Positions 7,408-58,325 of a DNA stretch of 64,000 nt are shown piece after piece. Position 1 is the stretch's first letter, and every line of letters starts with the position of its first letter. The stretch is from a virus (taxonomy: Duplodnaviria; Caudoviricetes): IMG/VR virus record IMGVR_UViG_3300042260_000337; one strand, written 5' to 3'. The position numbers and the translations under genes are program-made. Under the pieces are notes generated by a model. It ran no database searches. It saw nothing but the letters and a program-made list of their open reading frames with translations, and was not told where the DNA came from.

Positions 7408-10149
7408 TTAGAACTCGAATAGATTGTCAAATGTTTCGGAGTTGTTGGTGTCGTTCAAATCCCAGTTTAGAACGCCAATCAGGTTGTTTATTTTCTTAGT
7501 AATAATTGTAAATTCCATTTCGTTGTTGTCAAATGGTAATTCCTGAAACCACATTGGCAACTTCAACTCATCAATGGGATACGCGATACTTGTAATCCCC
7601 ATAGGATTAGACTTCAACTTACAAACGATAGTTTTCATGCCATCAGTGATCTCCATACTATAGTTGTCACTGTTCATTCTACGAAGTCGGTTCCAGTTGA
7701 TTGCTGCAAGAGCATGACCTACTGCACACTTTCCTGTTTTCTCAAACACTTTTGTGTGATGAGTTAGGTTGTTTACTCGTTTCGGAGTTCCCTTTTGCCA
7801 AGCTGGCATCTTGCGAAACTCTTTTTTGAACTGCTTGATCATATCAATAACTTCTTTCTGTTCTGCGTCAGTTAGAAGTTTCATCAGAACGTCCTTCAAG
7901 AACTCCTGCATGTAGTCTGGGGTGTCAGAACGCTTTAGGTCAAGGCCCATCGCTTTTACTTTGCCAGGAAGCCCATCAATGTCCCTGCGCTTTCCATCGT
8001 CATCAAAAATAAGCATAGCATATCGCTTCTTCTTGATGAATAGCCCAGTTGTAGCGGCGTTTTCACGTCCTGCTTTGATGATTTCGCCCTGTTTCCTTGG
8101 CACATGGAAGAATAACTTCATAAAGTCGGGGAAACTTTCGTTCACCTGTTTTGCGATTTCGTCATACAACTCCATCACAATCTCTTTACTCCAAGCGATT
8201 TCTCCACTATCAATTCTATCTTTGTATACTGGATACATAGAGAAGTAGATAGAGTCGGTATCGCCATAGATAATAGAATCACCCTTGTAATCATATGTTC
8301 CCGCAATAACTTCGTTGGTTTTGCTACCCATATGGCGAGTGATACAACGTCCAGTGAGAGTAGTAGATTGACCAATCCGTTTATCATAGAAGCGGCAACC
8401 TGGGTTTAGAATAGCACCATACAGTGAGTTCAAGTTGATCTTCTTCACCAACTGACGTTTGTCCCAGAAAGCAACTTCTTTGCCTTCTCCAGCATCACGT
8501 GCATCTTTCATCTTGGCTTGAAGTTGCTTACGTTCACTATACCATCTTTCCAATAGACTTGGAATAATTCCTTGAACGTCTTGTCTGAAAACTGTCCCGT
8601 TTGCTGATAGCGCCCAGTTCAATTCGCTAGTATTGAAAATCAAATCATATACTTCTGCCCCAGTAAGATTGGAACTACTTCCATCTTCCATATCAAGGAA
8701 CAACGGAACCACCTTATCTCTTTCGTTTACATAACGAAATTCTTCTGATGAGAATGTATCTTCCCATGCCTGTGGAGCACCAAAACTTTTTCCGACAGTT
8801 CTTTTACCTTCAATAATACGGCTAGTAATCATTTCTTCGGTGTAGTTCTGACGAAGTTGAGCAACAATCGTTTCTGGCGACATATTCAATGACCGTAGAA
8901 CCGATGGATACAGAGAGTTCAAGTCAATACCAGAAATCCATCGCTGAATACCTGTCTTGGGCTGCGCCACAAACGCACCAGCAGCTTTTTCTTTTGCAAG
9001 AAACTCTGCAAGTTCGTCGTCATCCATGTCCGCTGGGTCGTCAGCATCTTCTTCGTTCCAGTCTCTTGCTTTGCGGTCAGGAACATGCATATCGCGGCGA
9101 TGTGCTTCATTGATGATTGCCTGTTCAGTAACGGCAACCGCACCCATTGTAGTTTTGATAAGAACTGTATTATCGTGGGCAATTTCATTCGCCAAGTCAA
9201 TAAACCGAAGTTTCTTATCTAAGTCTGCAATAAGCATAACGTCTTCTCTGTTATACTCAATGAACTTGTAGAAATCTTCGTTATATAATTGGTCTAGTGT
9301 TCCTTCATATGCAACCTTTTTACGCCCAAGTTCATATTCTGAAATAGCATCCAACGAGTATGAGTGCATTTCATGATATGTATACTTACGGTAAAGTTCA
9401 AGATAGTCCAAGTGAACCCGCCCCACCAGTTCATAGGTGAGTTGGTCTTTGCCATACTTCTTGACATATTTTTCTTTTGGCTGCACATCCCATAGACATA
9501 GACGTTTGATGTATTCTTTGCCGAGAACTTGAATAATTCTACGGACAGTATAAGGAATATCGTAACCTTCTGAGTTCCATCCGCTGATGATATCTGCATC
9601 ATCTACAAGAGATAGAAAATCTTTGAGCATTTCCTTTTCACTGCGATACCACTTTGTATTGTCAAACCGTGTGCAGATTTGTTCTGCTTCTTCATCTGAC
9701 ATACCTTTTGGTGGAATGGCCAATGTAATTAGTTCGCCTATCCAGTCAAGGTAAACTGTGATGGCGGTAATTGGCATAAATGCTTCTTCGGTTGACGAGA
9801 ACCCACGTTCCTTGTCAAAGTCAACTTCAATGTCGCAAAATGCAGTATGCAGAACGGGAGAATCTACCCCGTTGTAATTTAGAGATAGGCATTGGTTCTC
9901 TGGCTTGATATCGCTTTCAAACAGCTTTTTTCCAGAGTTAATCTTTAGTTCTTTATGGAAATCTTTAGTTGTCTTGCATCGGATTTGGCGAATTTTATCA
10001 CCAAAGATACTACGATGCTGGCCGTTTTGGTCCTTTACATAGAATGTTCTAATAGCGGGATAGTCTTTGAATACCCGCTTTCCGTTTAACCGTTCAACAA
10101 CACGAACCAAGTCGTGTTTTTTATCGTAATATGCATCAACGTATGACAA
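7408..10149 (-). CDS. polB: family B DNA polymerase (T4 gp43-like)
   Basis: exonuclease DIE and WNSEGYD; polymerase DLNSLYPS, KINLNSLYG and YGDTDS motifs. Confidence 0.95.
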   Translation of the reverse strand: MSYVDAYYDKKHDLVRVVERLNGKRVFKDYPAIRTFYVKDQNGQHRSIFGDKIRQIRCKTTKDFHKELKINSGKKLFESDIKPENQCLSLNYNGVDSPVLHTAFCDIEVDFDKERGFSSTEEAFMPITAITVYLDWIGELITLAIPPKGMSDEEAEQICTRFDNTKWYRSEKEMLKDFLSLVDDADIISGWNSEGYDIPYTVRRIIQVLGKEYIKRLCLWDVQPKEKYVKKYGKDQLTYELVGRVHLDYLELYRKYTYHEMHSYSLDAISEYELGRKKVAYEGTLDQLYNEDFYKFIEYNREDVMLIADLDKKLRFIDLANEIAHDNTVLIKTTMGAVAVTEQAIINEAHRRDMHVPDRKARDWNEEDADDPADMDDDELAEFLAKEKAAGAFVAQPKTGIQRWISGIDLNSLYPSVLRSLNMSPETIVAQLRQNYTEEMITSRIIEGKRTVGKSFGAPQAWEDTFSSEEFRYVNERDKVVPLFLDMEDGSSSNLTGAEVYDLIFNTSELNWALSANGTVFRQDVQGIIPSLLERWYSERKQLQAKMKDARDAGEGKEVAFWDKRQLVKKINLNSLYGAILNPGCRFYDKRIGQSTTLTGRCITRHMGSKTNEVIAGTYDYKGDSIIYGDTDSIYFSMYPVYKDRIDSGEIAWSKEIVMELYDEIAKQVNESFPDFMKLFFHVPRKQGEIIKAGRENAATTGLFIKKKRYAMLIFDDDGKRRDIDGLPGKVKAMGLDLKRSDTPDYMQEFLKDVLMKLLTDAEQKEVIDMIKQFKKEFRKMPAWQKGTPKRVNNLTHHTKVFEKTGKCAVGHALAAINWNRLRRMNSDNYSMEITDGMKTIVCKLKSNPMGITSIAYPIDELKLPMWFQELPFDNNEMEFTIITKKINNLIGVLNWDLNDTNNSETFDNLFEF

Positions 10150-11323: not shown

Positions 11324-12715
11324 TTACCATTTTCTGCATGACCAGTAACGTGCTTTTGTTCGTGGGCCTGGGTTGTCGCAATTGTGTCTTGCTCTGAACG
11401 ACTTTCTGCGTTCTGGGTTTGACTTCTTGATTTTCATGTCTGGGTCACCGAAGTTTACCTTTTTTACATTTCCAGTGCTTGGGTCTTTGACATAGACCTT
11501 GAATTTTTTTACATCGCCGCGCATTGGCTTACCGAGTGGGACGTTTCTGCCTTGATACTCTGCTTCATCCAACTTTTCATCTTCGTTGAACCACATAACA
11601 CCATATGCTTCAAAGAAATCGTTGCCTTCATATGTTTCTTCATACATAGATTCTTTTGCCGCGCCACCTGATGGGAATCGGGTTTGTATCCCTTGGTTTG
11701 AACTTGTTTGCTTGTCCATGTATGATTTGGCTTTTTGCATACCAGTGTTTAGACCTTTCGCGCCCATGACCGCAGCATTTCCTATATCTTTTGCCAATGG
11801 CGAAGTTAGTGCTCTTCCTGCCCCACTTGCCGCTCTTGCTATTGCTGGCCCTGCTGCTGCTGCCCCTGCTCTTACTGCTCCCGCAATGGCACCTCCTGCG
11901 GCTCCAAGTGCTGGCAGAAACTCTTTTAGATTTTCGTGCTTTGACTTTATGGAATCGAGCATTTCTTGGTATTGGTCGGCCATCATTCGGTGATGACGCT
12001 GTGTGATGGGGTCTTTCACCATCTTTGCTTTTTTGAGTCTATCATCAATCATCATCTGTAAACGGCTGATACGATGTGAAGTATTTCCTTCGTCTATTTT
12101 ACTTTCTGGAACGCAGTTGGGGACTTCTTTACTGCCTTTTTTTTTAGTTCCGACCATTTTGTAACCTGACCAGCATGGGTCTTTGGCACCGCCCTTCATT
12201 TTTCCAGCTTCTTTTATCTTAGACTCACCAATAGTATCTTCGTCGGCCATTGGACTGTTCATGACGGCATTATAGTCATCCATTTCATTATCTGACGGCA
12301 TTTCGTCACCCATTGGTAGGTCCATTTGCATACCGCCACCCATTGGGTCATTTAGTTGTTCAACATCGCCACCAAGTTCATCGCCCATGCCACCCATGCC
12401 ACCCATGTCACCGCCCATGTCTGGACCTTCAAAATCGTCAAATCCGCCCATTTCGTCGCCCATAGCTGGTTCGCTTGATTGTGCGTTTAGGTCAAGAACA
12501 TACATACGTGAGGTTAGTGCATCTGACATGCGCTGATATGCTGCATATGCGCTGTTATGCATTTTAGAGAACTGTAGCGACAAATCATGAATGGCGTCTC
12601 TGGCGTTCTTGCCGCTTTGAATTTCAGATGCAAGTTGTTCAGTTGTGCGATTTAGATAATCTTCAAACTCATCATTGGAGATTACAAAATTTTCAAAAAG
12701 TTGTCTAAGTTTCAT
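11324..12715 (-). CDS. modular late protein, probable internal head protein
   Basis: MKLRQLFE N-terminus; modules CWSGYKMVGTKKKG...VPNCVP and KVNFGD...RRKSFRARHNC...KARYWSCRKW typical of T4-like phages. Confidence 0.7.
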   Translation of the reverse strand: MKLRQLFENFVISNDEFEDYLNRTTEQLASEIQSGKNARDAIHDLSLQFSKMHNSAYAAYQRMSDALTSRMYVLDLNAQSSEPAMGDEMGGFDDFEGPDMGGDMGGMGGMGDELGGDVEQLNDPMGGGMQMDLPMGDEMPSDNEMDDYNAVMNSPMADEDTIGESKIKEAGKMKGGAKDPCWSGYKMVGTKKKGSKEVPNCVPESKIDEGNTSHRISRLQMMIDDRLKKAKMVKDPITQRHHRMMADQYQEMLDSIKSKHENLKEFLPALGAAGGAIAGAVRAGAAAAGPAIARAASGAGRALTSPLAKDIGNAAVMGAKGLNTGMQKAKSYMDKQTSSNQGIQTRFPSGGAAKESMYEETYEGNDFFEAYGVMWFNEDEKLDEAEYQGRNVPLGKPMRGDVKKFKVYVKDPSTGNVKKVNFGDPDMKIKKSNPERRKSFRARHNCDNPGPRTKARYWSCRKW

Positions 12716-12953: not shown

Positions 12954-15900
12954 TTATGCAGCTTTGGTATTTAGGTTTCTACCAAACTCAAGTTTGCGTT
13001 TGATACTACTCAATACTTCAAAGAATAGTTCTTTTACCGCATTTAGATTTTCAAAGAAACTAAAGAAGGTAAGACCTGGAACTTTTTCAGTAGCAACATT
13101 CATCACTGTTGAAATGAAAGTTCCGAATTGGTCGGCAAAGTTTGATTTGACCACGTTTGCCAATATTGTTTTTACACTAGATAGATTCTGGACCATGTAT
13201 TTGGCAAACGCATATACGCCAAGACTTCCCAAGAAGCCGATAATGCCGCCACGCTTGAATATTGCAGATGCGAATGTAATGATATTCTGCACCATATCCC
13301 TCAGTGTGGTAGCGACTGTTTCGTTATTGACAAGGCCAATCGCAGTGTTCAGAACCGATGATAGTTGCTTCAACATTCCTCTTGACGATTTCACCATTTG
13401 GGTGTATGATTTCTCAAAATATGTTTCATCCATAAGAATATCTTTGATAAGAACAGCGGCGTCTTTCATGGTAAGAATGGTAGCCGATAGGTCATCAATC
13501 GTATTTTGTGCTTTACTTCCCAACCATTTTGTGACGGAAACCAACATTGCTTCATGTAGTTGTGCTTCTGTAAGCATCTTGCGACCTGTATCGCCATACA
13601 TTTCTCTCAAATTGAATGCTGGCTTTCCATCTTTTGAAACTTTGTTTCCAAACTTTGCGGCTTGTTTTTTGATTTCGTTTGGGCCAACATCAATCGTAGT
13701 GTTGACGCCTTTTACGATTTTACCAACCCCGCCAGTTTCATGAATATCCTTGAATGTAGTTTGAGGGAAGTTGATAAGCATACTCAATCCCTCCTTGGCT
13801 GGAAGGCTCATACGGAATGCAGTGATTTTGTGTATCTTTGCATTTTTAGCAGCAAGCCAACGATGATGCCCATCCAACACATAGTTGTCAGAACTGATTA
13901 TGATTGGCTTGTTCATCTTTCCGTTTGTCATTGCAGCTTCTACGCCCTTGTCGCTGAACTCTGACTGAGTTGACATTAGGTCTGCTGGATCAACTATTTC
14001 TTTTTTTATTTTGCCACCATTATCGTAGATATAACGAAACAAATCTTCATAATGCTTTTCGTCAATTTGCGGCATATGGCGTCTTGGAACACCAAGTGTG
14101 TCGGCAGGATGAGGTTTTACGATTTTTAGTTCATTTAGTTCGCCCTCACTATGAACTTCTGGGTGCTCTGGTGAACCACCAATCTCTTTGTATTCCGCAC
14201 CGAACTTATCAAGAATTCTTTTCAAACGAGCAACTTGTTCTTGATTGGCAAGGGTGACTACCATATCTGAGTCACTTTGCCCGAACTCATGTGGGTCTTG
14301 CTGGTTCAATCTTGCAAAATGCTGACCTAGCTTATACCAATCAAAATCACCTTTTGTATCAATCACCAATGTATTTTGTGGCATAGTAAGCAAGTCGTGT
14401 TGGTATCCAGTGGGGTCATCTTCAACTGCGTCTTCATTGAATGCAACATCGGTTGCCTTCTTTGCGATTTCACCTTGAGGATGTTTTGGGTTGATAGTTA
14501 CAACTTCTCCGTTCATCAACTCTGAGATATTTGCAGTTTTACCAATTGTATCTAACAGTTGATGCAGCTTGTCATTTGCATCATACCCATTAGTTTCATA
14601 GTTTGCCTTGCCTCTGACTTCGGTTCTCTTTCCAGAATCGGTATTCAGAATATGTAACACATACAGGTCATCATCACGTTCAAGTTGTAGCTTGTATGAT
14701 TCATTCATATGCTTGAAATACTGAACCTGACGCTCTCTTTTTAGAGCGCCAGCTTTAGTTGGGTAAGTTCCAAGGTTCTTTTTGCCATCTTTAGAGCGAA
14801 GTTGAAATCCGCCCTTCACTTTTTTTATAGTTTCATTTACTGATTCTGGCGTTGGTGTTTTTGCTGGAACTGCCAGTAGCTTGCTGAATGTTTTCTTTGG
14901 CTTTTTTGGTAACACTGCCAGATATTCTTTTCTCAACTCTTCTTTTTTAGGAGTAAGTTCGCGAATGTGGGATTGAAGTTCTTTTATTTTTTCTTCATTT
15001 GGGTCTGCACGATTGACTTCTGCACGAAGTTTTGTAGTATAGTCATCAATCATGTTTTGAATGCTGTTTATTTCATTCTTGATTTCTGCAACGTTTTCGT
15101 CTCTTTCGTCATCATATATTGGAGCATCACTATAAAGTAGGTTATCGCCTTCGACATGACTATACTTCTCTACACCATTTTCTTTGTATGCTGCAAATAC
15201 CGTTACGCTTGGGTCTTTTGATAACGCAACCCATATTTTTCTTCCGCCCGCTGATTGCATAGAGTCTGCCTGAAGGAATAGACCCACCTTTGTAACCAAG
15301 TGGGCATAGAATTTTGGCATCAATCCTTTTCCTTGAAGTGCAGGATCAAGTGCTGCGGCATGAATAACGCAAGGCGATTTTGATGAACTACGAGTCATAT
15401 GGACCAAGGCATGCATATTGGTTTCTTTGTCGCATAATAGCGCGTTTAGTTCACGTCCTTCTTTTGCTATAAAGACACGAAACTTACCCATTGGTTCTAC
15501 TTCGGTAAATCTACTGTAATATTTTTTGATTGGAAAGCCCCACATATAGGATTTCCAATCTTTGGAAACTTTCACAGTTTCTATTTCTTCGCCTAACTTT
15601 TTCTGTATCTCGCCAGTTTCATCATCAACCGAATATTGACTACGGAAGAACGCACTTCCGTCATCAGTCATATTTGACACTGAAATCTTTTTACTAGGAA
15701 ACTCTTTGAATAGGTCATCAACCAACATTTTGGCATAACCTTTTCTGCGGCTATCATCTGCGGTAATAACATGAGAGATATAAACCTCGTCATCTACGAT
15801 GCTTACATCAACGCCAGCTTTGACTACGCCATCAACCATCAGATACTTGGTTCCGAATGTTTCGCCTTTGTAGTGGTCAGAAACGGACACTGGGTTTATT

Positions 15901-18542
15901 TTTATATTCCCAGTGTTCTCTGTCATTTTTTCATTTTTTTTTACTGACTCTGTTTTTGTTACCTTTGGTTTATCATACATTGGGTCATGAGCGGCATGAG
16001 CAAATAGATACACATCCTCGTGTTCTTCATCCCAAGTTTGTTTGCTTTGAGCGTCCATCTTTTCGTCTCTTAGCTTTTTCTCCATTGTTCGCAAGTCAGC
16101 ATATTCTTTTTTGAGACGAGCAAGATTGGCAGTGTCCGTTTTATCCATGGAACTATAATCATCCCATACTTCACGTATCTTATCTTCTACAAACGCAAGT
16201 TCTCTTTCAATCTCTTTGACTTCGTTTTTCAACTCAGTGTCATAGGTATGGAAACCACTACGCAGGAAGTCATCTACATCGTTGTCAATATCCGATAGCT
16301 CCCAGTTTCCGCCATCATTTTTTGCTGCGTATACGGTAATTCCTGGGATTTTTGACAGAGCAATCCATATCTTCTTTCCGCCTTGCGATTGAAGATCATC
16401 ACTGCGAATAACCCAACCCTTCTTACATAGGAACGCATATAGCTTAGGCGCAATGCCTTTTCCTTGCCAAGATGGGTGAATGATAGTTGCCTTTGCAATC
16501 CAGTATTCCATGCCTTCTCTGTTACCATAGTCGCGCTCAAATTCAATCAGTGATATTGGTTTGCGATCCAGTGCAGAGTTTTCATTCTTGTCAGTAACCA
16601 AAAATACTTTGCGAGAGTTGGCTCCGTATTGTTCTAATACTACATCATATCCACCAAGTCTGCCTATCTTTCTTACATACTTTGTGTTCTTGCCTTCCCA
16701 ATCAGTATTGCCAATCCATCCCCAACTTTTTGGTAGGTCAACGGAAGAAACCTCATTGATAGATTCGTTTTTTGGTTTCTTGTCAGTGGTAGCAAGAAGA
16801 TATATCAGTTCATTCTTTTGGCGACTTAGGCGGTCATCATTGTAAATTTCGTCACGTTCTTTTGTAAGTTTGCGAATATGGTTATCCAAGAAATCCAAGT
16901 CAGATTGCATCTTTTCCAACTGCTTTGGGTCGGATACTTTTTCTGATTGTGCTAGTAACACGTTATATTGAGAACGTGCAGCTTTGATTTCGTTAGTATA
17001 CTCATCTACGCCTTCATTGCGATAAATTGGGAAATCACCAGCCAAGACTTCATCGCCATCAACTGCGGTATAATCCATGTTGCCATGTGCATCTTCTTTT
17101 GCTGCATACACAGTTATGCCAGGAATTTTTGCCAACTCTGCCCAAATCTTCATGCCGCCTTTTGATTGGTCGGTATCTGAACGAAGGAAGAAACCTTTCT
17201 TTACAAGGTATGCATAAATTTTTGGCATAAGTTTTTTGCCTCTTAGCGCCTTGCCAAGAGCCGCACCTTTTACTTGCCATAGTGTTACTGAATCTTCGGT
17301 GTAGTTTTGAGTAAGTAGTAGTTCACCTTCAATAATAACTGGGTCACTGCTTTCTTTTGATAGTTGTTCGGTGGTTATGAATATTGAACGATTCATAACG
17401 CCTATTTTCTTTTGATATAGATTGATTGGTCCAAGAGTTCCGATAAGAGATACGCCAGAATACATAAGCAAGTCTTTGCCTATGTTTCCTGGGTTCCAAT
17501 CACTTTCAACACCAACCTGTGTAATACGGTCTTCTTTTATGCCATAACGTTCTTTATACATTCTTTCAAGTTGACGCCCATTCAATCCTTGAAACGCACG
17601 AGCAATATCAAATGCGTATCCACCAATACTTTGCTTTCTTGGGTCACTTGTTACCAATCTGTGCAATGCTTGTAGAGCAGAATCATAAAAGTTTTGACTT
17701 GCTTTTGCTGCAAGTTTCGCCTGAAGTTCGTCTCTACTTATGGCTTCATTTGTAATTGCCTCTTCTTCGTCACTAGTATCGCCAGTAATAGAATATGTTT
17801 TTCCTTTTACTGTGAACTCTTTTTTTCCAGCTTTTATTGCATTCATTCTTGCATCAGTGAACGGATTGGACTCGCCCATCATTTTATCGGCAAGTTTTAC
17901 ACCCGCACGGTCTGCCAACTTTTTCAACTTGAATAGATTTTTACCAGTCTTGAACGCAGCTTTCAACGTTGCAACGGTTGTTTGCCCTACCACTGCCATT
18001 ACAATCAAATCAGTTAGAGGTGGGATTGAACCCAAGTCTTCGCTTAGTTCTGCCTCTCCAACCAATCTTCCTTTATATGGATGTGGTTGTGATCCAGTTC
18101 TTGATGGTTTTGAGTTCTTTGGTAATGGTTCTGAACCACGAACCTGATCTACGCTTTCAACTGGAAACTCTCTGTCTGGTGACTTGAAGTTCTTTTTTCT
18201 CATAACAGTTTTTGCAACCAAATCTAACTGATTAGTTTTTCTGTTCCAATTCAACACAAATGGAATGTTTACATCAGATTCCAAATCCTTCATAATGGCT
18301 TCTTTGTCTGGTCCCATTTGCGCGATTGGTTTGCCCCAACGCTTATATTCCTTGGCAAACAAACGCCCTAGTTCTCGTATTGTGATCTGCTTTCCATTTC
18401 TTTCGTCGTTTACGCGGTCAAGAAAGTGATGAGTAAACCCGACATCAATGCCAAGTTTGTTGAATACATTATCAATATGAACTTCAAGTGCATCCAGTGC
18501 AGATTTTGTTACTTTACCATCGATATCTGTTATGTTTACCAT
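12954..18542 (-). CDS. 1862-aa polyvalent protein: N-terminal nuclease-like domain, four GNAT-like domains, ParB/Srx-like domain
   Basis: acetyl-CoA motif A variants LRGKKLMPKIY, WQGKGIAPKLY, SRRKGYAKML, LQGKGLMPKFY; ParB-like ISSDNYVLDGHHRW; modules separated by (I/L/V/M)xE linkers. Confidence 0.75.
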   Translation of the reverse strand: MVNITDIDGKVTKSALDALEVHIDNVFNKLGIDVGFTHHFLDRVNDERNGKQITIRELGRLFAKEYKRWGKPIAQMGPDKEAIMKDLESDVNIPFVLNWNRKTNQLDLVAKTVMRKKNFKSPDREFPVESVDQVRGSEPLPKNSKPSRTGSQPHPYKGRLVGEAELSEDLGSIPPLTDLIVMAVVGQTTVATLKAAFKTGKNLFKLKKLADRAGVKLADKMMGESNPFTDARMNAIKAGKKEFTVKGKTYSITGDTSDEEEAITNEAISRDELQAKLAAKASQNFYDSALQALHRLVTSDPRKQSIGGYAFDIARAFQGLNGRQLERMYKERYGIKEDRITQVGVESDWNPGNIGKDLLMYSGVSLIGTLGPINLYQKKIGVMNRSIFITTEQLSKESSDPVIIEGELLLTQNYTEDSVTLWQVKGAALGKALRGKKLMPKIYAYLVKKGFFLRSDTDQSKGGMKIWAELAKIPGITVYAAKEDAHGNMDYTAVDGDEVLAGDFPIYRNEGVDEYTNEIKAARSQYNVLLAQSEKVSDPKQLEKMQSDLDFLDNHIRKLTKERDEIYNDDRLSRQKNELIYLLATTDKKPKNESINEVSSVDLPKSWGWIGNTDWEGKNTKYVRKIGRLGGYDVVLEQYGANSRKVFLVTDKNENSALDRKPISLIEFERDYGNREGMEYWIAKATIIHPSWQGKGIAPKLYAFLCKKGWVIRSDDLQSQGGKKIWIALSKIPGITVYAAKNDGGNWELSDIDNDVDDFLRSGFHTYDTELKNEVKEIERELAFVEDKIREVWDDYSSMDKTDTANLARLKKEYADLRTMEKKLRDEKMDAQSKQTWDEEHEDVYLFAHAAHDPMYDKPKVTKTESVKKNEKMTENTGNIKINPVSVSDHYKGETFGTKYLMVDGVVKAGVDVSIVDDEVYISHVITADDSRRKGYAKMLVDDLFKEFPSKKISVSNMTDDGSAFFRSQYSVDDETGEIQKKLGEEIETVKVSKDWKSYMWGFPIKKYYSRFTEVEPMGKFRVFIAKEGRELNALLCDKETNMHALVHMTRSSSKSPCVIHAAALDPALQGKGLMPKFYAHLVTKVGLFLQADSMQSAGGRKIWVALSKDPSVTVFAAYKENGVEKYSHVEGDNLLYSDAPIYDDERDENVAEIKNEINSIQNMIDDYTTKLRAEVNRADPNEEKIKELQSHIRELTPKKEELRKEYLAVLPKKPKKTFSKLLAVPAKTPTPESVNETIKKVKGGFQLRSKDGKKNLGTYPTKAGALKRERQVQYFKHMNESYKLQLERDDDLYVLHILNTDSGKRTEVRGKANYETNGYDANDKLHQLLDTIGKTANISELMNGEVVTINPKHPQGEIAKKATDVAFNEDAVEDDPTGYQHDLLTMPQNTLVIDTKGDFDWYKLGQHFARLNQQDPHEFGQSDSDMVVTLANQEQVARLKRILDKFGAEYKEIGGSPEHPEVHSEGELNELKIVKPHPADTLGVPRRHMPQIDEKHYEDLFRYIYDNGGKIKKEIVDPADLMSTQSEFSDKGVEAAMTNGKMNKPIIISSDNYVLDGHHRWLAAKNAKIHKITAFRMSLPAKEGLSMLINFPQTTFKDIHETGGVGKIVKGVNTTIDVGPNEIKKQAAKFGNKVSKDGKPAFNLREMYGDTGRKMLTEAQLHEAMLVSVTKWLGSKAQNTIDDLSATILTMKDAAVLIKDILMDETYFEKSYTQMVKSSRGMLKQLSSVLNTAIGLVNNETVATTLRDMVQNIITFASAIFKRGGIIGFLGSLGVYAFAKYMVQNLSSVKTILANVVKSNFADQFGTFISTVMNVATEKVPGLTFFSFFENLNAVKELFFEVLSSIKRKLEFGRNLNTKAA

Positions 18543-27219: not shown

Positions 27220-27368
27220 CAGTGACATGCAGCTACTATTTCCCTCGGAAACGTTTGACTGTGTATGAAGTGTTGTTATAGACAGGGCTGTTTGCAGCTT
27301 TAACGTAAATCATACACAAGTGCAGAGGATCGCACGGTCTTCCCTCACAAGGGGAGATTATATCACTG
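27220..27368 (-). ncRNA. unassigned ~150-nt rod-shaped RNA candidate
   Basis: terminal stem CAGUGAUAU/AUGUCACUG and inner stem UGUGUAUGA/UCAUACACA; no ORF. Confidence 0.45.
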
Positions 27369-27459
27369 TCTAATCTAAATAGGTGTCCATTTAGAGTTTG
27401 GACAAACTTGGGGCTTCAAAAGCCACTCCACCACTTGCTTTTACAAAAGCAAGAAAATA

Positions 27460-28889: not shown

Positions 28890-28966
28890 TGGTGGCCCTA
28901 GTGGGACTCGAACCCACGACCAATAGTTTTAGGGACTGCCGCTCTAACCAACTGAGCTACAGGGCC
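28890..28966 (-). tRNA. amber-suppressor tRNA (anticodon CUA)
   Basis: GGCCCUG/UAGGGCC acceptor, GCUC/GAGC D stem, GUGGG-UUCGAGU-CCCAC T arm, A73-CCA; anticodon loop CCCUAAA (atypical C33, one C-A mismatch in the stem). Confidence 0.8.
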
Positions 28967-29274: not shown

Positions 29275-30119
29275 AGGCTGAGATTATACCTTGAGGTGAG
29301 TGCCTTCGGTCATTACCCAATCCCTTGCGAGGATGGTTCTACCTTTATCCACAAGAGTCGTTTCCGATCATCTTGTATCACTCAATGCGGCCTTTGTTAG
29401 AGAGTGGCATTTCTCTCGTCGCATACTGCTATTCATCCTTCCATCTTCCGCCAGCCTTGCGGGCTGTTCAAGGTCGCTAAACCCTTACGTCTTCTGTCCG
29501 AATAATCACGTCCACCTTGCGAGTTTCAGTGAACCATATTCTCTTGCGAGTATGGTATTACGCATCTTTCACAGTATACCGAGGTAGTCTTTCGCTTTTG
29601 TTTCAATAATAGGAGTTGAACCTACAATCGTTCTCTTAGAAGGAGACTGCATTACCATTATGCAATATTGCGAACCTATTTCGATGTGCTACCTCAGTTG
29701 CACCATACCTTGTTAGATACAGTATACAACACACCGACTGTCTTTTGCCTTGCGGGCTACTCAACGTCTTTTCAAGTATCCGGGGCCTAACCCTTCCACT
29801 CTCAAGATGCTACTACGCCTTTCCTTGCAGGGTCAGACAGTGTAGCTACCTGTTAACCTTCAGTATTCGTTAGTTTGGCTGAAAACTGTTCGGACGCCAA
29901 TCCTCTTACCACTCACCGACTGGCTCTGTGGCTATCCTTTCAGACAGTTCTCCTAACTTACTACCTACCGCCTCTCTACAGACGGGACTTGCTTTCGGTT
30001 TAATCCGAGTCAAGTCTGGTTCAGGCTTGTATAGATGGACCATCACTGGCGCAAGTTTATAGGAAACCTTGCTTTGGGCGTATTACTACGCTTACCCTTA
30101 TGGACGCTATACCGCCCAA
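29275..30119 (-). ncRNA. GOLLD-like giant ornate ncRNA (~845 nt)
   Basis: own promoter TTGACT-17-TAGGAT (30127-30155); five or more C-GCAA-G tetraloop hairpins; 3' end ...CUCAAGGUAUAAUCUCAGCCU; sits in a phage tRNA cluster and carries an internal tRNA, as known for GOLLD. Confidence 0.72.
29601..29672 (-). tRNA. tRNA-Arg(UCU)-like domain embedded in the GOLLD-like RNA (probably degenerate)
   Basis: GCAU/AUGC D stem, loop CUUCUAA, GUAGG-UUCAACU-CCUAU T arm; top two acceptor pairs mismatched, no CCA. Confidence 0.6.
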
Positions 30120-30164
30120 TCTCTACATCCTAACTCAATTCCGAAGAAGAGTCAAGGACTTTTT

Positions 30165-30548: not shown

Positions 30549-30828
30549 TCAAGTCTCCGCTGATAATAGTATTTATCATTCAGAGACGACTGTATTGGCT
30601 TTCCAGCTACCTTAGAAGCAAGCCATATTGGACATTGCTTTACATCACAACAGCTTTGAACTGAGAGATTGTGGCAACTAAGACTGGAAACTTGTGGTTG
30701 GCTCTACACGCATCGCCCCGTGCGATTTAACTGACTAGGGTTATTGTCAGGACCGAAATAGGGTGGAAACGTCATTACAAGTAACGCTTCCGTTACTATC
30801 TATTATCATCCCCGATAGTGGGGGTATT

Positions 30829-30904
30829 TGGCTCCCAGTGCAGGGCTCGAACCTGCGACATTCTGATTAACAGTCAGACGCTCTACCAACTGAGCTAACT
30901 GGAA
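30829..30904 (-). tRNA. trnN: tRNA-Asn(GUU)
   Basis: U1-A72, G73, loop CUGUUAA, CCA. Confidence 0.93.
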
Positions 30905-31013
30905 ACATAGTTTTTGGCTCTATCCCAACGCAGGAGGACGATTTAACTGCTATATGCCGTAGCAGGACCGAGATTCTTGCGTCTTACGTATTTATCATAC
31001 TGCGCTAGTATTT

Positions 31014-31090: not shown

Positions 31091-31252
31091 ATATCTGTTT
31101 TCAGCTACACACAACACTTTCCAACCCGTAAAGGCTAGTGTGCCAAGTGTGTATGTGAAAACAGATTTTGTGCAATCAGGTCTTACAGGTTTATCACCCC
31201 GCCTGATCTTGTTTTCAAGCCATCATCGCTTTCGCTAGGCCAGCATCGTAAA

Positions 31253-31279
31253 TTTTCAAAGAGCGTGGAACACCGTTCC
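31253..31279 (-). promoter_or_regulatory. rrn-type antitermination leader: boxB-like hairpin plus boxA
   Basis: GGAAC-GGU-GUUCC hairpin followed by GCUCUUUGAAAA (boxA consensus). Confidence 0.6.
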
Positions 31280-31291
31280 GATTACTTGTTT

Positions 31292-31530
31292 CTTATATCA
31301 CGTTCGTTTTTCGTTGTCAAGAACTCTTTTCAACTTTTTTCGTCCGCGTTTCAGTTCCGAGCATCGTTCCTTTGTGTCCCGCTCTATGTTCTTAACTTAG
31401 CAAACTTTGTTTTCTTTGTCAAGAACTTTTTTTCTTTTTTTTCACGGCTGCTTCTGGTTACTAGCCTTAGCCCTTCCGCGATATTCTTAACTTACCAAAC
31501 TCTGTTTGATTCGTCAAGAACTTTTTTCAG
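31292..31530 (-). promoter_or_regulatory. three tandem strong sigma70 promoters with A-tract UP elements driving the tRNA island
   Basis: TTGACG-17-TAAGTT (31489-31517), TTGACA-17-TAAGTT (31394-31422), TTGACA-17-TATAAG (31292-31320), each with an upstream A tract. Confidence 0.8.
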
Positions 31531-33133: not shown

Positions 33134-34231
33134 TTATTTGTGCTTCATCCCTGCGAGGCGTTGTAGCCATCCCAAGTCGTCGCGTTCAGACTCGAAAACG
33201 AATGTATTCGCTTTCTTGTTGTTGCGTAGGCGGGTGTAGATTTCACCTACCTTTCCTGGTTTCAAAGTGCCTACGTCAAACATTACGCCGCCGTTTGTAT
33301 CATAAACTTTGGCTCCGTCAGTTGTCTTTATCAAGACACCTTCCTGATTGTATTTAGCACCCAGTTGAAGCATTTTTTGTTTGAAATCTTCATCACTGCC
33401 TTTTGGTGCTATAACAAAAATCGAATCTTCTGCTACATGAACTTCCTGTGGTGTTCCAGCATTTTCAATCCAGTATCCATCCACAAAGAAGAACCCATAA
33501 CCAAGTTTTCTTATGGTTGCAGCAAGTTCTTTGTTACGGCGCACATTTTCTTCTCTGTCATATTCACCACGAAATGCAGTCAATAGTGAAATAGGACGGT
33601 CGGATTCTGCATGTTGCCATACACGACTCAAACTTGCTTCATTTAGTTGCTTGTTACTTTCATCAATCTTGGAGACTACCATTTTGACGAAACGCTTACC
33701 ATTCACATTTTTTGGTGGTTCTACTTCCTCAAACGCAAATGCTCGTCCCTTGATGCGACTTAGAAACTCACCAGCGGCACGTCCAAAACGTGCATTACCA
33801 GTAACTATTTTTTCTCCGCGACCAGGAAAATCCGAGTTATTTGTGCCATATAAAAATGCACCTTCTCCACCCTGTGGAATAATCAGAACCGAATCTTGGT
33901 CATAACGTTGACCCAACATAATAATGTCGTTTACGAACTGTTTTGCGTCTTTGCCATTTGGTGCAACGAAAAACGATTCTTCGCCAACTTCTTTTGCGTT
34001 GTCTGTTCCGAAATCTTCAATGTAGTTTCCTTGGATTTTGGTAACACTATACCCTTTTCCAATCATGTATTGCATCAACTCTTTGTTGCGTTCACGGTTT
34101 CGAGCACGAGTATTTCCACCGCGAAATGCAGTGATTGCCGCAGTGGTTTCCTCTTGTGTTTTATCCCATAGCCGAGACAGGCCACTTTCATTCATATTAT
34201 TGTCCATGAGTGTTTTCCTTATTGACGCCAT
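33134..34231 (-). CDS. tandem two-domain SAM lyase-like protein (T3 SAMase/DUF3293-like)
   Basis: two repeats each with TAFR, N..RN.EL, G.(Y/W)IE, (E/A)E(E/D)S.FV and Y.Q(D/E).VL, in the same order as T3 SAMase SAFR, GCYRE, EEKTVRV, EQDCVL; GATAAATA at 34245-34252. Confidence 0.6.
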   Translation of the reverse strand: MASIRKTLMDNNMNESGLSRLWDKTQEETTAAITAFRGGNTRARNRERNKELMQYMIGKGYSVTKIQGNYIEDFGTDNAKEVGEESFFVAPNGKDAKQFVNDIIMLGQRYDQDSVLIIPQGGEGAFLYGTNNSDFPGRGEKIVTGNARFGRAAGEFLSRIKGRAFAFEEVEPPKNVNGKRFVKMVVSKIDESNKQLNEASLSRVWQHAESDRPISLLTAFRGEYDREENVRRNKELAATIRKLGYGFFFVDGYWIENAGTPQEVHVAEDSIFVIAPKGSDEDFKQKMLQLGAKYNQEGVLIKTTDGAKVYDTNGGVMFDVGTLKPGKVGEIYTRLRNNKKANTFVFESERDDLGWLQRLAGMKHK

Positions 34232-44290: not shown

Positions 44291-45025
44291 TCACTTTAGT
44301 TCGTCAATCAACACTGCTCGTTTTACTGAAAGGACCATATCTCCACCGATCATGGCCAAGTAACTTGCGGTTTGTTCATCGTCACATGCAACCGCTAATG
44401 TAGAGTATTGCCAATATCGTCGTTTATCTACCTCTGCAAGATTTGGAGATATGTAGATATTTTCCAATGAAGAAGCCATTTCTCTGAATGAAACCACTTC
44501 TTTAAGATCGACATCGCGACCAGCGATCATCGTAATCTTATAACGATGACGCTCATAATACAAACATTTTCTTACTTCTTCGGTTACGGAAAGTTTTGAC
44601 TTTACTTCGTCATAATCTTCAAATGCTGGCTCACATTCATCTATTGCAAACTCCCTGTAGTTTGCAAAGTTTTTAATTTGCTCATACAGTTCTTTTGACG
44701 TTATATAGATCAACGTATGGATAGAGTCATTGCGAACTTTGATTTCACCCTTGTTTGTCTGTGAAAGTTTTTCTATTTGGTCATGTAATCCTAATCTACG
44801 CGCCAATTCATCTTCTGTTGAAGGGTAATGTCGAACTGTAAAATGAGCACTATATCCAAAACTTCTGTTTTTTTCCGAAGTCATCGTTGATGGATTTAGG
44901 GCGTATTCCAAATATTTGTCATAAAAGTTGAATATAAGTTTAGTTCGTATTCTAAACTTATACTTCTTGTAAAATGGCTTTGTAACGATTTCTTTTTTGA
45001 TTCGTTTATACTTAAACATACTCAA
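44291..45025 (-). CDS. hypothetical protein
   Basis: 244-aa ORF overlapping the clpA stop. Confidence 0.7.
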   Translation of the reverse strand: MSMFKYKRIKKEIVTKPFYKKYKFRIRTKLIFNFYDKYLEYALNPSTMTSEKNRSFGYSAHFTVRHYPSTEDELARRLGLHDQIEKLSQTNKGEIKVRNDSIHTLIYITSKELYEQIKNFANYREFAIDECEPAFEDYDEVKSKLSVTEEVRKCLYYERHRYKITMIAGRDVDLKEVVSFREMASSLENIYISPNLAEVDKRRYWQYSTLAVACDDEQTASYLAMIGGDMVLSVKRAVLIDELK

Positions 45026-47231
45026 ATGTCAATCCTTCCTCATTCACTGAAACATTTACTGTTCCGCCATTGACAAGCCGACCAAACAAAATCTCTTTTG
45101 AGATTGGCTTCTTGATGCTGTCATGAACAACCCGCTGTAGAGGACGTGCGCCCATGTTTGGCTGATATCCCTTATCGCAAACCCAAGACCTTGCTTCGTC
45201 ACTGAGCACAATTTTGATATTCTTTTCTTCAAGCATGGTGTTTAGTTCTTTTACTGCCTTGTCAACAATCATTAGAATATGGTCTTTGTCCAGATTTTTG
45301 AACTCAACCACTGCATCAAGGCGGTTACGAAACTCAGGAGAGAAGAACTTCTCAATCGCAATCTTACTTGCATCATCGTTGCTGTTGCTAAATCCAATCG
45401 CTTGCTTTGAGCGTTGTGCAGCACCAAGGTTAGAAGTCATAATAAGAATGACGTTACTGAAATCAGCAGTCTTACCAGTTGAAGAAGTCAACTTGCCATC
45501 ATCCATAACTTGAAGAAGAAGGTTCATAACACTTGGATGTGCCTTTTCAACTTCGTCAAGAAGAACAATGCAGTTTGGAGTTTCTTCAACTTCATTGATG
45601 AGTTTACCAGAACCAACTCCACCTTCAGCATGTCCGACATAACCAGGAGGTGCGCCAATCAGTTTTGATACTGAATGGGATTCCATATATTCTGACATGT
45701 CATACTTACGCAGCTTGACATTCAGGTTGTCAGCAAGTTGACGACATACTTCTGTCTTACCAGTTCCAGTTGGTCCAACAAACAGGAACGAACCGACTGG
45801 TTTATTTCGTGGTCGCATACCAGCTTTAGCAACAAAGATTGCATCGGTCAATTGTTGAACTGCCGTATCTTGTCCAAAGATTTTTGACTTGATATTATCT
45901 TCTAGCTTTTCGTAATTGGTGTTCTGTTTTGCATCAATCATATCAAGAGAGATATTCGCAATTTTTGAAATTGCTTTGCGAATTTCATCATCGGTGATAC
46001 GGTCAGTAGTCTTATGCAGCTTTGCTTGTGCGCCCGCTACGTCAATAACGTCAATAGCACGGTCTGGGTTGAACCTGTTGAAGATGTATCGTTCTGCCAA
46101 GTCAACGGCTAAGTCAAGAGCACTATCATCATACGATACATTATGAAATGCCTCGTAGTATTCGCGCAACCCACGAAGGATTAGCTTAGTGTCGGCATTG
46201 CTTGGTTGGTCAATATTCAGACGCTGGAAACGGCGCTGTAGAGCACGATCCTTTTCAAAGTTCTCACGGTATTCTTCACTGGTAGTTGCACCAATACAGT
46301 GCAGCTTTCCACTTGCCAACAATGGTTTTAGAAGGTTTGCAATGTCAATGTTAGACCCGCCAGCATTACCAGCGCCCATAATCATATGGATTTCGTCAAT
46401 AAACAGAATTGCGTTGTCTTTTTTGGCAAGTTGGTCAAACACAATCTTGGCACGTTCTTCAAACTCGCCACGATATTTGGTTCCCGCAACCATTGCAGTC
46501 ACGTCAAGTGAATAGACAACCTTGTCTTCTAGGGTGTGCGGAACTGTTCCTTCCACAATCATAAGGGCAAGACCTTCTGCGATTGCAGTTTTACCAACCC
46601 CTGGTTCGCCAACAATAATGACATTGTTCTTCTTGCGACGAGCAAGAACTTCTGCAACTTCTGTAAGTTCACGAGTGCGGCCAACGATTGGGTCAATTAG
46701 ACCTTCTGATGCTTGGCGGTTTAGGTTGGTGCAGAAGTCTTCAAAGCGAATTTGTTGATTTCCACCACCTGAAGCACCCTGTGGAGATAGACCAGCCGCC
46801 GCATTGTGTTCATTTGTAATAATTTCAATTGCTTTGTTGCGGTCTGCACCATGCTTCTTCAATACGAAGTATGCATAGGAGTTCTTTTCACTCAGTAAAG
46901 AAATAAAGATATCTTTGCATACCAGTTTTGTGCTACCAGAGAAGATAGCTTGTGTCACAGCACGGTTGAATACGCGGTCAAGGGCAAGTGTTTTTCTTGG
47001 TTCATGCCCATTTGCATTTGGAATGTCATCGCGTTCACGCAAAAAGGTTTCAAGGTCTGAAACGATAGAACCAACATCTACTCGCATCTTATTGAGGAAG
47101 GCTATTACATCATCTTCTTCCAGAATTGAATAGAGAAGGTGTTCCAAAGTCACGTATTCATGTGCAAGTGCGGTCGCTTTTTGAATTGCACGTTCAATGG
47201 AAAGATTTACACGGTCAGGTTGGTTGCTCAT
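45012..47231 (-). CDS. clpA: ClpA-type Hsp100 AAA+ chaperone
   Basis: Clp N-domain HEYVTLEHLL; two Walker A (GEPGVGKT, GPTGTGKT), Walker B LFIDEIH and LLDEVEKAH; 739 aa with no ClpB M-domain. Confidence 0.92.
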   Translation of the reverse strand: MSNQPDRVNLSIERAIQKATALAHEYVTLEHLLYSILEEDDVIAFLNKMRVDVGSIVSDLETFLRERDDIPNANGHEPRKTLALDRVFNRAVTQAIFSGSTKLVCKDIFISLLSEKNSYAYFVLKKHGADRNKAIEIITNEHNAAAGLSPQGASGGGNQQIRFEDFCTNLNRQASEGLIDPIVGRTRELTEVAEVLARRKKNNVIIVGEPGVGKTAIAEGLALMIVEGTVPHTLEDKVVYSLDVTAMVAGTKYRGEFEERAKIVFDQLAKKDNAILFIDEIHMIMGAGNAGGSNIDIANLLKPLLASGKLHCIGATTSEEYRENFEKDRALQRRFQRLNIDQPSNADTKLILRGLREYYEAFHNVSYDDSALDLAVDLAERYIFNRFNPDRAIDVIDVAGAQAKLHKTTDRITDDEIRKAISKIANISLDMIDAKQNTNYEKLEDNIKSKIFGQDTAVQQLTDAIFVAKAGMRPRNKPVGSFLFVGPTGTGKTEVCRQLADNLNVKLRKYDMSEYMESHSVSKLIGAPPGYVGHAEGGVGSGKLINEVEETPNCIVLLDEVEKAHPSVMNLLLQVMDDGKLTSSTGKTADFSNVILIMTSNLGAAQRSKQAIGFSNSNDDASKIAIEKFFSPEFRNRLDAVVEFKNLDKDHILMIVDKAVKELNTMLEEKNIKIVLSDEARSWVCDKGYQPNMGARPLQRVVHDSIKKPISKEILFGRLVNGGTVNVSVNEEGLTFEYV

Positions 47232-56722: not shown

Positions 56723-56914
56723 TTATTTTGTTAGCAATTCAAATACGTCATCTGGTAGAACACCGTTGTGTTTTCCTAACAGTGACACAGTTTTGACCGC
56801 AGCAAGTTTCTTGTTACGTTCATCATTTGCTTTCCATACAGCAGCCATCCAAGTAACATACTCTTTTGACGAAGTATCAAACAGGTCTTTTGGGATTGGA
56901 GGAAAATCACTCAT
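56723..56914 (-). CDS. hypothetical protein
   Basis: 63-aa ORF overlapping the NAMPT stop. Confidence 0.55.
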   Translation of the reverse strand: MSDFPPIPKDLFDTSSKEYVTWMAAVWKANDERNKKLAAVKTVSLLGKHNGVLPDDVFELLTK

Positions 56915-58325
56915 AGCGAGACACCATTTCAGTTTCAGGGTTCACAACCGCACGTTCACGGATTGCTTCAAACGTATCTTCAAGAAGAAGGTCACCGTTT
57001 TCATATACAACCCGAAGAACTTTGTCTTCTTCACGAGCGTTCTTTTCTTCTACGGTTCGGAACCCGCAGCTTCCAATTCCACATTCGTGAACCAGTTCAA
57101 GGCGACCTTTCTTAGAAAGTTTACCTTTATCAGTGATTGGGTCTTTGTAAACATCAACCCAAACCCCATTCACAAGTGCAGCAGAACACTTCATCGCAAA
57201 CTTCTGGTCATCGCGTTGTGGAGCGCCAAGTAGAGCGCCACCCATACCAAATGCAACGTTGTCGGCACAGAAACCATTTGCTTTCAGGCTTTCAAGAATA
57301 GCTTTGACACTATCCGAATTGATGCCATCACCTTGAATGATACGAACATGATTTAGAAGTTTGTAACCTTTTGCGTTTACAGTTGAACCAAAAGTTTTGT
57401 CCAACAGTTTTGCAACTTTTGTCACAACTTCAACTGGGTCACCAGAGTCGGGACGGACAACAAGAGTTGCGCCAGACTTGATTACTTCTTCGCGAAGTTC
57501 ACCACCCCATAGATTTTCAACAGCGTTGAAAATATCATAGCTGTCAGAAACAACAGCAAGGATTGACCCAGGTTTAGCGAACTGTTTCAGCATATTTTTG
57601 TATGCTTTGACTTCGTTTTCGCGACCCCAAGAAGTAATGGTGCTATGTTCAGCAGCAGGAATAGAGAACCCTGCCATTGGCATTTTGTAGTAGCGTTTTG
57701 CACCAACTACAGCAGCAATAGTGTCAGTCCCCATAAAGCTGACCAAGTGAGCCATGCCGCCAAGAGTGGCAGACTCATGCGAAGATGTTCCTCGCGCACC
57801 GAAGTCGTGTAGTTTGAAGTTGAGTCCAGCAAGATCGCCGCCAGTTTCAACCATGAACTTCTGAATGATTTTCTTGATTTCACGGCTGGTTGTGGCAACA
57901 GTGGTTGGATACCAGATTGCACGAAGCAATGCAGTTTCCAAGTAGGTGGTCAACCAGAAACACTTTGGATCGGTGTTTTCAACAGTAACCATTGCGTTGT
58001 GAACAGGAATCACAGTCCCTTCGGGCGCAGCTTTGATGCGAATAGGAAGTTTCCCGCCAAGTTCCTTGACGATGTATTCCCAACCTTCACGATTGAATGG
58101 TTCCCCATGGCCAGTCCAGATTTCTTCTGCTTCATCCACATCTGCCATCGTGATTGGTTCAAGCAGATACTCTTTGATGAACGCTTGTAGTCCGAAGAAC
58201 ACAAGTTCATTGTATTTTCCGCCACGGCTTTCAATGTAGCTGAATACAGTTTCTGTATTTTCAGGGTATTGAACGAACATTGACGCTTTGTAGCTGTCGG
58301 TATTTAGTAGTAGATTGCTTTTCAT
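56907..58325 (-). CDS. nadV: nicotinamide phosphoribosyltransferase (NAMPT)
   Basis: TDSYKAS, LHDFGARG, IPAAEHSTITSWG, VSDSYD, VRPDSGDP, IIQGDGI, FGMGGALL, KFAMK. Confidence 0.95.
   Translation of the reverse strand: MKSNLLLNTDSYKASMFVQYPENTETVFSYIESRGGKYNELVFFGLQAFIKEYLLEPITMADVDEAEEIWTGHGEPFNREGWEYIVKELGGKLPIRIKAAPEGTVIPVHNAMVTVENTDPKCFWLTTYLETALLRAIWYPTTVATTSREIKKIIQKFMVETGGDLAGLNFKLHDFGARGTSSHESATLGGMAHLVSFMGTDTIAAVVGAKRYYKMPMAGFSIPAAEHSTITSWGRENEVKAYKNMLKQFAKPGSILAVVSDSYDIFNAVENLWGGELREEVIKSGATLVVRPDSGDPVEVVTKVAKLLDKTFGSTVNAKGYKLLNHVRIIQGDGINSDSVKAILESLKANGFCADNVAFGMGGALLGAPQRDDQKFAMKCSAALVNGVWVDVYKDPITDKGKLSKKGRLELVHECGIGSCGFRTVEEKNAREEDKVLRVVYENGDLLLEDTFEAIRERAVVNPETEMVSRYE

Follow-up and report, generated by a model that had tools for sequence, protein, structure and literature searches.

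Two copies of a small RNA in a phage tRNA array

The window analysed here is a stretch of 64,000 nucleotides from the virus record IMGVR_UViG_3300042260_000337 (Duplodnaviria; Caudoviricetes), which is 102.7 kb long and estimated to be 27% complete. The DNA polymerase B of the record is closest to those of the jumbo phages Phosso and Atu_ph07 (46–49%), and GAP32/K64-1-like phages follow with 43%. The window contains an array of 17 co-oriented tRNA genes together with a GOLLD RNA. Two copies of an RNA element of about 60 nt, which we call the junction RNA, are found in this array on the minus strand (copies A and B, Table 1). An earlier note on this DNA had described them as a duplicated motif of about 58 nt with three shared blocks. 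The blocks (9, 11 and 9 nt, 29 nt in total) are indeed present in the same order, at 30971, 30949 and 30922 in copy A and at 30756, 30733 and 30706 in copy B, and the stems CUGCUA/UAGCAG and CUGAC/GUCAG are as the note gave them. Measured by the shared blocks, the copies are 58 nt (A) and 59 nt (B) long and 215 nt apart. This agrees with the proposed extent, but a conserved tail runs about 5 nt further in the 3′ direction, to 30909 and 30693. The expected number of chance recurrences of 29 ordered exact bases within the window is about 3e-10. No third copy was found in the window or in the whole record.

Homologues in uncultured jumbo phages

Homologues of two neighbouring proteins led to related contigs, these to diverged copies of the element, and these to a degenerate pattern. 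Viral, metagenome and genome collections were scanned with this pattern and the matches were filtered for stems. The scans gave 128 matches with 78 distinct sequences, two of which were discarded as chance, leaving a core set of 76. A covariance model (R2) added about 15 members and a scan with free flanks about 12, giving about 100 distinct copies in total. Strict three-block patterns had no match in viral or metagenome contigs, because GGUC of the window is a minority variant of the family. A two-block pattern gave chance matches only, as did the earliest degenerate pattern (3 matches).

The carriers are uncultured jumbo phages, with near-complete genomes of 195–519 kb and 1–4 copies per genome (five carriers searched whole). 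Nine pattern matches in GTDB genomes, none of them structured, come from a single exact-pattern scan, which does not prove absence from cells. Among cultured phages, blastn gave nothing convincing, and the covariance model had no match in Phosso, Atu_ph07, 2.275.O, XaC1, K64-1 or MD18 in a search of which part had no positive control. A weak match in GAP32 lacks the triloop described below and was rejected. No Rfam 15 family matches the motif in the window (E ≤ 10) or at 12 loci with consensus copies (E ≤ 5), and a literature search on motif words returned unrelated papers only. The motif is not described in the part of the text of Fremin et al. 2023 (PMC10690425) that was seen. The junction RNA is thus a real family of jumbo-phage tRNA arrays, apparently uncatalogued with respect to Rfam 15; the 10,006 unnamed viral candidate structured RNAs of PMC10690425 lie outside this comparison and form the chief reservation about its novelty. 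The search for homologues had been set beforehand as a test that the motif would fail if no additional ones existed. With about 100 homologues showing covariation, the proposal of a new conserved structured RNA is strongly supported.

A tRNA lies within 1 kb of all 76 core members and within 100 nt of 64. The arrays are almost wholly co-oriented with the motif, and spacers of 5–12 nt on both sides are common. A tRNA is found 7–11 nt downstream in 38 of the 76 and 3–12 nt upstream in 31, the upstream distance ranging from 3 to more than 400 nt. Some copies are in tandem; others precede unrecognised RNAs, promoters or open reading frames (ORFs). The word "duplicated" is misleading, because the nearest relatives of each copy are found in other phages and the neighbouring copy is more distant; the two are not a recent duplicate pair. 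The copy B allele occupies the upstream slot in L126, and other alleles substitute for either copy in close relatives. Since the same allele occurs in different slots, the unit behaves like a tRNA gene cassette.

Architecture of the junction RNA

Copies A and B each fold separately into an identical three-way junction, with a closing stem P1, two hairpins P2 and P3, and a single base (J1/2) between P1 and P2. Their folding energies show no advantage over shuffled sequences (z 0.83 for copy A and 0.31 for copy B), so the evidence for the structure is comparative and not thermodynamic. The family consensus reads CGGU-A-[hairpin P2]-YUAAR-UC-[hairpin P3]-A-GA-GCC-NANNRCA. In an alignment of 41 sequences, 99.3% of the cells are paired and 9 of the 14 pairs show compensatory double changes; none of 500 shuffles reaches this level, and slid controls give 15–41%. 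Stems were part of the member filter, and features never imposed by the pattern are therefore the more telling tests. Two such features were read in the 76 distinct copies. Bases 1 and 5 of the triloop form a C-G pair in 45 and a U-A pair in 31, with no mixed case, so that the triloop is either UUAAA or CUAAG, whereas chance matches mix the two without restriction. A further pair joins the base that follows the triloop to the one that precedes RCC (UA in 72, AU in 4), which means that P3 runs directly into P1.

The invariant positions are GG, AA and CC only. GG and CC are present in 94 of 94 members; they belong to the search patterns, yet are kept in all members found by the model alone. The J1/2 base is A, C or G, the bulge in P3 is A, U, AA or AG, and P2 accommodates inserts of 50–60 nt. 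Conservation is concentrated in the folding core, a few junction bases and the tail, while the arms accept large inserts. What the covariation supports is a three-way junction with GG/CC as its closing pairs and a lone-pair triloop as its organising element.

This arrangement carries the published Y(UAA)R/CC:GG signature of A-minor junctions (Geary et al.; PMC3035441; PMC6689051), which occur in 23S rRNA (H42–H44 and H90–H92) and in type B RNase P (P10–P10.1). Both parts of the signature are found in the junction RNA, namely the Y(UAA)R triloop with a covarying U-A/C-G closing pair and the neighbouring CC:GG receptor helix, invariant here, within a three-way junction. In the known cases the module lies inside a large RNA, whereas here it is the core of a free-standing unit of about 60 nt, to which the phage family adds kissing loops, the bulged A in P3 and the conserved tail. 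No homology to rRNA sequence was detected with Rfam. The junction RNA thus seems to be built on a known tertiary motif, and by analogy its adenines would make the same A-minor contacts in three dimensions.

Loop contacts and the 3′ tail

Loops 2 and 3 of one copy complement each other better than loops taken from different copies, and better than letter-shuffled loops (z −3.3 and −4.3, p ≤ 0.003). One sequence per cluster was used (46 clusters), with letter-shuffle and length-matched controls. These controls were added because a first test with folded loops was marginal (p 0.02) and a reversed-loop control was likewise significant (p 0.01). The complementarity reaches 6 bp, and in one subfamily C/G is replaced by A/U across the two loops. 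The figures describe the family on average; some members have little complementarity. In copy B, CCC(U) of loop 2 would be able to pair with GGG(G) of loop 3; the predicted contact of copy A is given in Table 1. Comparison across the family thus indicates that the two variable loops pair with each other.

The purine riboswitch aptamer is likewise a three-way junction with L2–L3 kissing loops, often via GG/CC pairs. Unlike it, the junction RNA has no ligand-binding junction sequence, its arm lengths vary, it does not lie in mRNA leaders, and it has no Rfam match.

Two copies 215 nt apart, each followed by GUUUCCAGU, could suggest a neutral duplication within the locus or a repeat at the DNA level. 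This explanation is refuted by covariation, since the roughly 100 copies have diverged with compensatory changes and show G-U pairs specific to one strand and complementary loops; we leave it next to no probability.

The tail holds a nearly invariant C six bases past CC. It is found in 92% of the 76, in 16 of 16 members known from the model alone, in 23 of 24 from the free-flank scan and in both window copies, whereas a C stands at the matching place behind the CCA ends of tRNAs (tRNA trailers) in 12%. The tail lies outside all search patterns. No covarying partner for it was found. Antitoxin RNAs of type III toxin-antitoxin systems are H-type pseudoknots, and mimicry of such an antitoxin by the A-rich tail was set aside on that basis.

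P1 ends in GCCA in most copies, and the copies occupy tRNA slots, which raises the idea of a CCA-ended tRNA mimic, a substrate for aminoacylation or for the CCA enzyme. In the free-flank scan the A after CC (17/24; GCCC, GCCU and GCCG occur) and the C before GG (15/24) are variable, so CCA mimicry is not required. Moreover, the CC is paired in P1, conservation extends past CCA, and an acceptor arm, a T arm and a free NCCA end are absent; neither ARAGORN nor Rfam calls the element a tRNA or tRNA-like RNA. We consider a tRNA mimic very unlikely.

Comparison with small ribozymes

The earlier note had seen a likeness to pistol ribozymes in a stem followed by UUAAAU, and a hairpin followed by UUAAA is indeed shared. 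The lead is not supported, since UUAAA is here a lone-pair triloop that alternates with CUAAG and belongs to a generic A-minor junction; the pistol pseudoknot is absent and Rfam gives no match. Pistol ribozymes are defined by a six-bp pseudoknot from the P1 loop to the P2–P3 junction (PMC6154101). In the junction RNA, loop 2 is unconserved and would pair with loop 3, and in place of about 10 conserved nucleotides, including G40, A/G32 and G42, only GG, AA and CC are invariant.

Some features would fit a self-cleaving ribozyme of a new kind. The helix order and the loop-loop pseudoknot are as in about 40% of hammerheads (PMC3088659), and like the type III hammerhead the RNA has one nucleotide between the closing stem and the first hairpin. 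Variable stems round a fixed core, with a near-invariant unpaired C at a fixed distance, are also typical of ribozyme alignments. The hammerhead core itself, CUGAnGA...GAAA...UH, is absent. These positions read YUAARUC...AGAG...UN, where N is G in 6 of 94, they hold the triloop and Watson-Crick pairs, and there is no Rfam match to a hammerhead. Theta (minimal HDV-like) ribozymes are small RNAs that act beside phage tRNA genes (PMC10879173), and the junction RNA too lies beside such genes. In place of their nested double pseudoknot we find a three-way junction, and the distance to the upstream tRNA 3′ end is not fixed within 5 nt but is 3–12 nt or more. A known non-catalytic A-minor junction explains every invariant core base, no conserved unpaired G was found, and the J1/2 base and the bulge vary. 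A new ribozyme class is therefore improbable on the comparative evidence, although it keeps some weight.

Possible roles of the junction RNA

The structure is well supported, and what can be said of function comes from comparison. The earlier note had proposed a ribozyme, a processing signal or a protein-binding motif. A protein-binding RNA fits best, whereas the processing signal is weakened. In that alternative the compact fold and the tail would show where to cut, or would stop an exonuclease, and so aid the release or stability of the RNA unit 7–11 nt downstream; the element would then be discarded. The spacing agrees with this: in half of the core set (38 of 76) a tRNA starts 7–11 nt past GCCAA and in none closer, while 44% of tRNA–tRNA spacers are shorter than 7 nt, and several other copies are followed, about as closely, by a structured unit of unrecognised type. 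C or U is the first base in half of the downstream tRNAs but in 28% of all array tRNAs, a count from related and hence non-independent phages. The minimum spacer, however, follows from the tail's own length, and the tail C keeps a constant distance from the motif and not from the tRNA start. A genome also holds 1–4 copies, whereas a locus may have as many as 46 tRNAs, and many copies have no tRNA after them but stand in tandem or before promoters or ORFs. We regard such a cis-acting element as possible but unlikely.

We favour a different reading, to which we give about an even chance: the junction RNA would be an autonomous, stable small RNA, freed by the host tRNA-processing enzymes and acting through binding of a partner. 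The tandem copies, the copies before ORFs, promoters and other RNAs, and the exchange of slots speak for such autonomy. Each copy would be an independent small RNA gene in a tRNA-sized slot of a phage tRNA operon, co-transcribed with the tRNAs. Cuts at the flanking tRNAs, by RNase P at the next 5′ end and by RNase E/Z with trimming at the previous 3′ end, would release it with a single-stranded tail of 7–12 nt. As in solved analogues, P2 and P3 would lie side by side, held by the kissing loops, to form a compact and nuclease-resistant body. The bulged A, the J1/2 A and the U-G pair might then form a binding face which, with CA of the tail, is offered to a host or phage protein. Most plausibly, though this is speculative, the RNA would serve during infection as a decoy for, or cofactor of, a protein that binds or cuts RNA.

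Several points weigh against this reading. No partner protein was found, with TROVE in 0 of 10 carriers and DUF2828 in 1 of 5. The tail C would be accounted for equally well if it made a tertiary contact, marked a cleavage site or took part in catalysis. The stacking of P3 on P1 and the placing of the Y(UAA)R adenines in the GG/CC minor groove are taken from solved analogues. Most members were found by pattern, so conservation is inflated at the patterned positions.

The 0 of 10 for TROVE comes from carrier records of which 8 are at least 90% complete, and it also bears on the idea that the RNA is a Y RNA-like molecule bound by a Ro60/TROVE or DUF2828 protein. The window copies start with GGUCC, as in GGUCCGA of vertebrate Y RNAs. 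The family consensus is GGUAC, the GNCGAAN0-1G motif expected near the 5′ end (PMC4201824) is missing from the consensus CGGUACUG, the CNGCAA handle is absent too, and YrlA has no match on the motif. A Y RNA relative is thus extremely unlikely. Functions beyond all these readings retain a small share of probability.

An autonomous RNA would have a precedent. The tRNA cluster of phage T4 encodes rnaC and rnaD (species 1 and 2 RNAs), which are stable, are not tRNAs and have no known function (PMC9697503). GOLLD (RF02032), found in the window array and in 3 of 5 carriers tested, is another structured non-tRNA RNA of phage tRNA clusters, likewise of unknown function. The junction RNA is much smaller than these and multi-copy. 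The covariance model has no match in the T4 tRNA cluster (E ≤ 5, filters off) and none inside GOLLD; the T4 pair is a precedent and not homologous.

Other features of the array and the window

Table 1. Positions of the two junction RNAs, their parts and neighbouring features in the window.
Feature	Position	Strand	Remarks
Copy A, junction RNA	30909..30970	−	between tRNA-Met(CAU) and tRNA-Asn; covariance model 62 bits
Copy A, P1 5′ strand GGU	30969-30967	−	
Copy A, J1/2 C	30966	−	
Copy A, P2	30965-30947	−	
Copy A, triloop UUAAA	30946-30942	−	
Copy A, P3	30941-30919	−	bulged A 30921
Copy A, P1 3′ strand GCC	30918-30916	−	followed by tail, conserved C 30910
Copy A, predicted loop-loop contact	30927..30959	−	loop 2 GCA with loop 3 UGC, 3 bp
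Copy B, junction RNA	30693..30755	−	covariance model 56 bits
Copy B, P1 5′ strand GGU	30754-30752	−	
Copy B, J1/2 C	30751	−	
Copy B, P2	30750-30731	−	
Copy B, triloop UUAAA	30730-30726	−	
Copy B, P3	30725-30703	−	bulged A 30705
Copy B, P1 3′ strand GCC	30702-30700	−	tail C 30694
tRNA-Asn(GUU)	30829..30904	−	begins 9 nt past GCCAA of copy A
tRNA, CAU anticodon	31014..31090	−	upstream of copy A
Second RNA unit	30596..30690	−	begins 7 nt past copy B; no Rfam match
Three tandem rRNA-operon-like promoters and boxA-like sequence	31253..31517	−	read from sequence
GOLLD RNA 3′ half with embedded tRNA-Arg	29275..29737	−	same array, separate from the motif

Upstream of the motif, the three promoter-like units (−35 boxes at 31517, 31422 and 31320; repeat family D3) and the boxA-like sequence (31264-31253) are kept in the relatives L120, L127 and L138. 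A consensus promoter scan missed these units. They probably drive transcription of the operon that includes the motif. The GOLLD RNA extends from 29275 to about 30120, with the embedded tRNA-Arg(UCU); its 3′ half is what the Rfam model covers, and a promoter at 30155 is the probable start of the 5′ half.

Further structured units lie close to the two copies. The second RNA unit (about 95 nt) is closed by a 7-bp stem, ends in G-CCA and includes a hairpin like a T loop; it begins with the same bases as tRNA-Asn, and covarying versions occur in L125, L126 and the distant phage L216. A hairpin that recurs, with GCA/GUAA as its internal loop and a loop of the GAUAA type, is found on the minus strand at about 30975-31008 and 31180-31215, and in L141 at 14765, 15145 and 15833. 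It often lies immediately upstream of the junction RNA (L120, L123, L127, L138, L262, L283). A long hairpin at 31091-31170 (−; z −6.8) has a constant outer stalk, which resembles an RNase III processing stalk, and an interior replaced by unrelated structured inserts in L120, L121, L127 and L138. A multi-stem RNA containing GUGAUAUAAUC lies at about 27275-27375 (−), with counterparts in L125 (about 9760-9860) and L216 (about 2060-2130); in L125 and L126 it stands where copy B would be, and it has no Rfam match at gathering score. In L141, about 3 kb (13500-16400) are almost free of ORFs and hold three junction RNA copies, repeated hairpin modules and several tRNA-shaped RNAs not called by ARAGORN.

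Some tRNA genes are themselves unusual. A tRNA with a CUA (amber) anticodon at 28890-28966 (−) is kept in relatives, though ORFs are long under code 11. A tRNA-Asn with a 45-nt structured insertion in the anticodon loop is present in L125 (9633-9750), L126 (7508-7625) and L138 (about 12480-12600), preceded by a 113-aa ORF that by eye is HNH nuclease-like; in L125 and L126 a second, intact tRNA-Asn also lies upstream. Comparable inserts of 33–50 nt in tRNA-Arg or tRNA-Asn occur in L282, L374 and L378.

Elsewhere in the window, the N-terminal half of the gene at 33134-34231 (−) matches a SAM-lyase-type protein of relatives (PF23780 in the relatives). The product has 365 aa here, 357 aa in L120 and about 174 aa in most relatives. 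The genes at 56907-58325, 45012-47231 and 12954-18542 (−) encode a NAMPT-like enzyme, a ClpA/B-type ATPase and a 1862-aa protein with GNAT-like segments.

Implications

The junction RNA adds a defined, multi-copy RNA family to the non-coding cargo of the tRNA arrays of jumbo phages. Its structure is directly testable: the RNA is about 60 nt long, some 100 variants of it occur in nature, and specific predictions can be made for the triloop, for the pairs between the loops and for the conserved C of the tail. It resembles a minimal form of an rRNA junction motif that has arisen naturally and is held stable by kissing loops whose sequence varies freely, and it would be a useful model and scaffold. 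Self-cleavage, if it occurs, would make the family a new class of ribozymes, whereas binding to a host protein, if that is its action, would point to a phage strategy based on RNA that is so far unknown.
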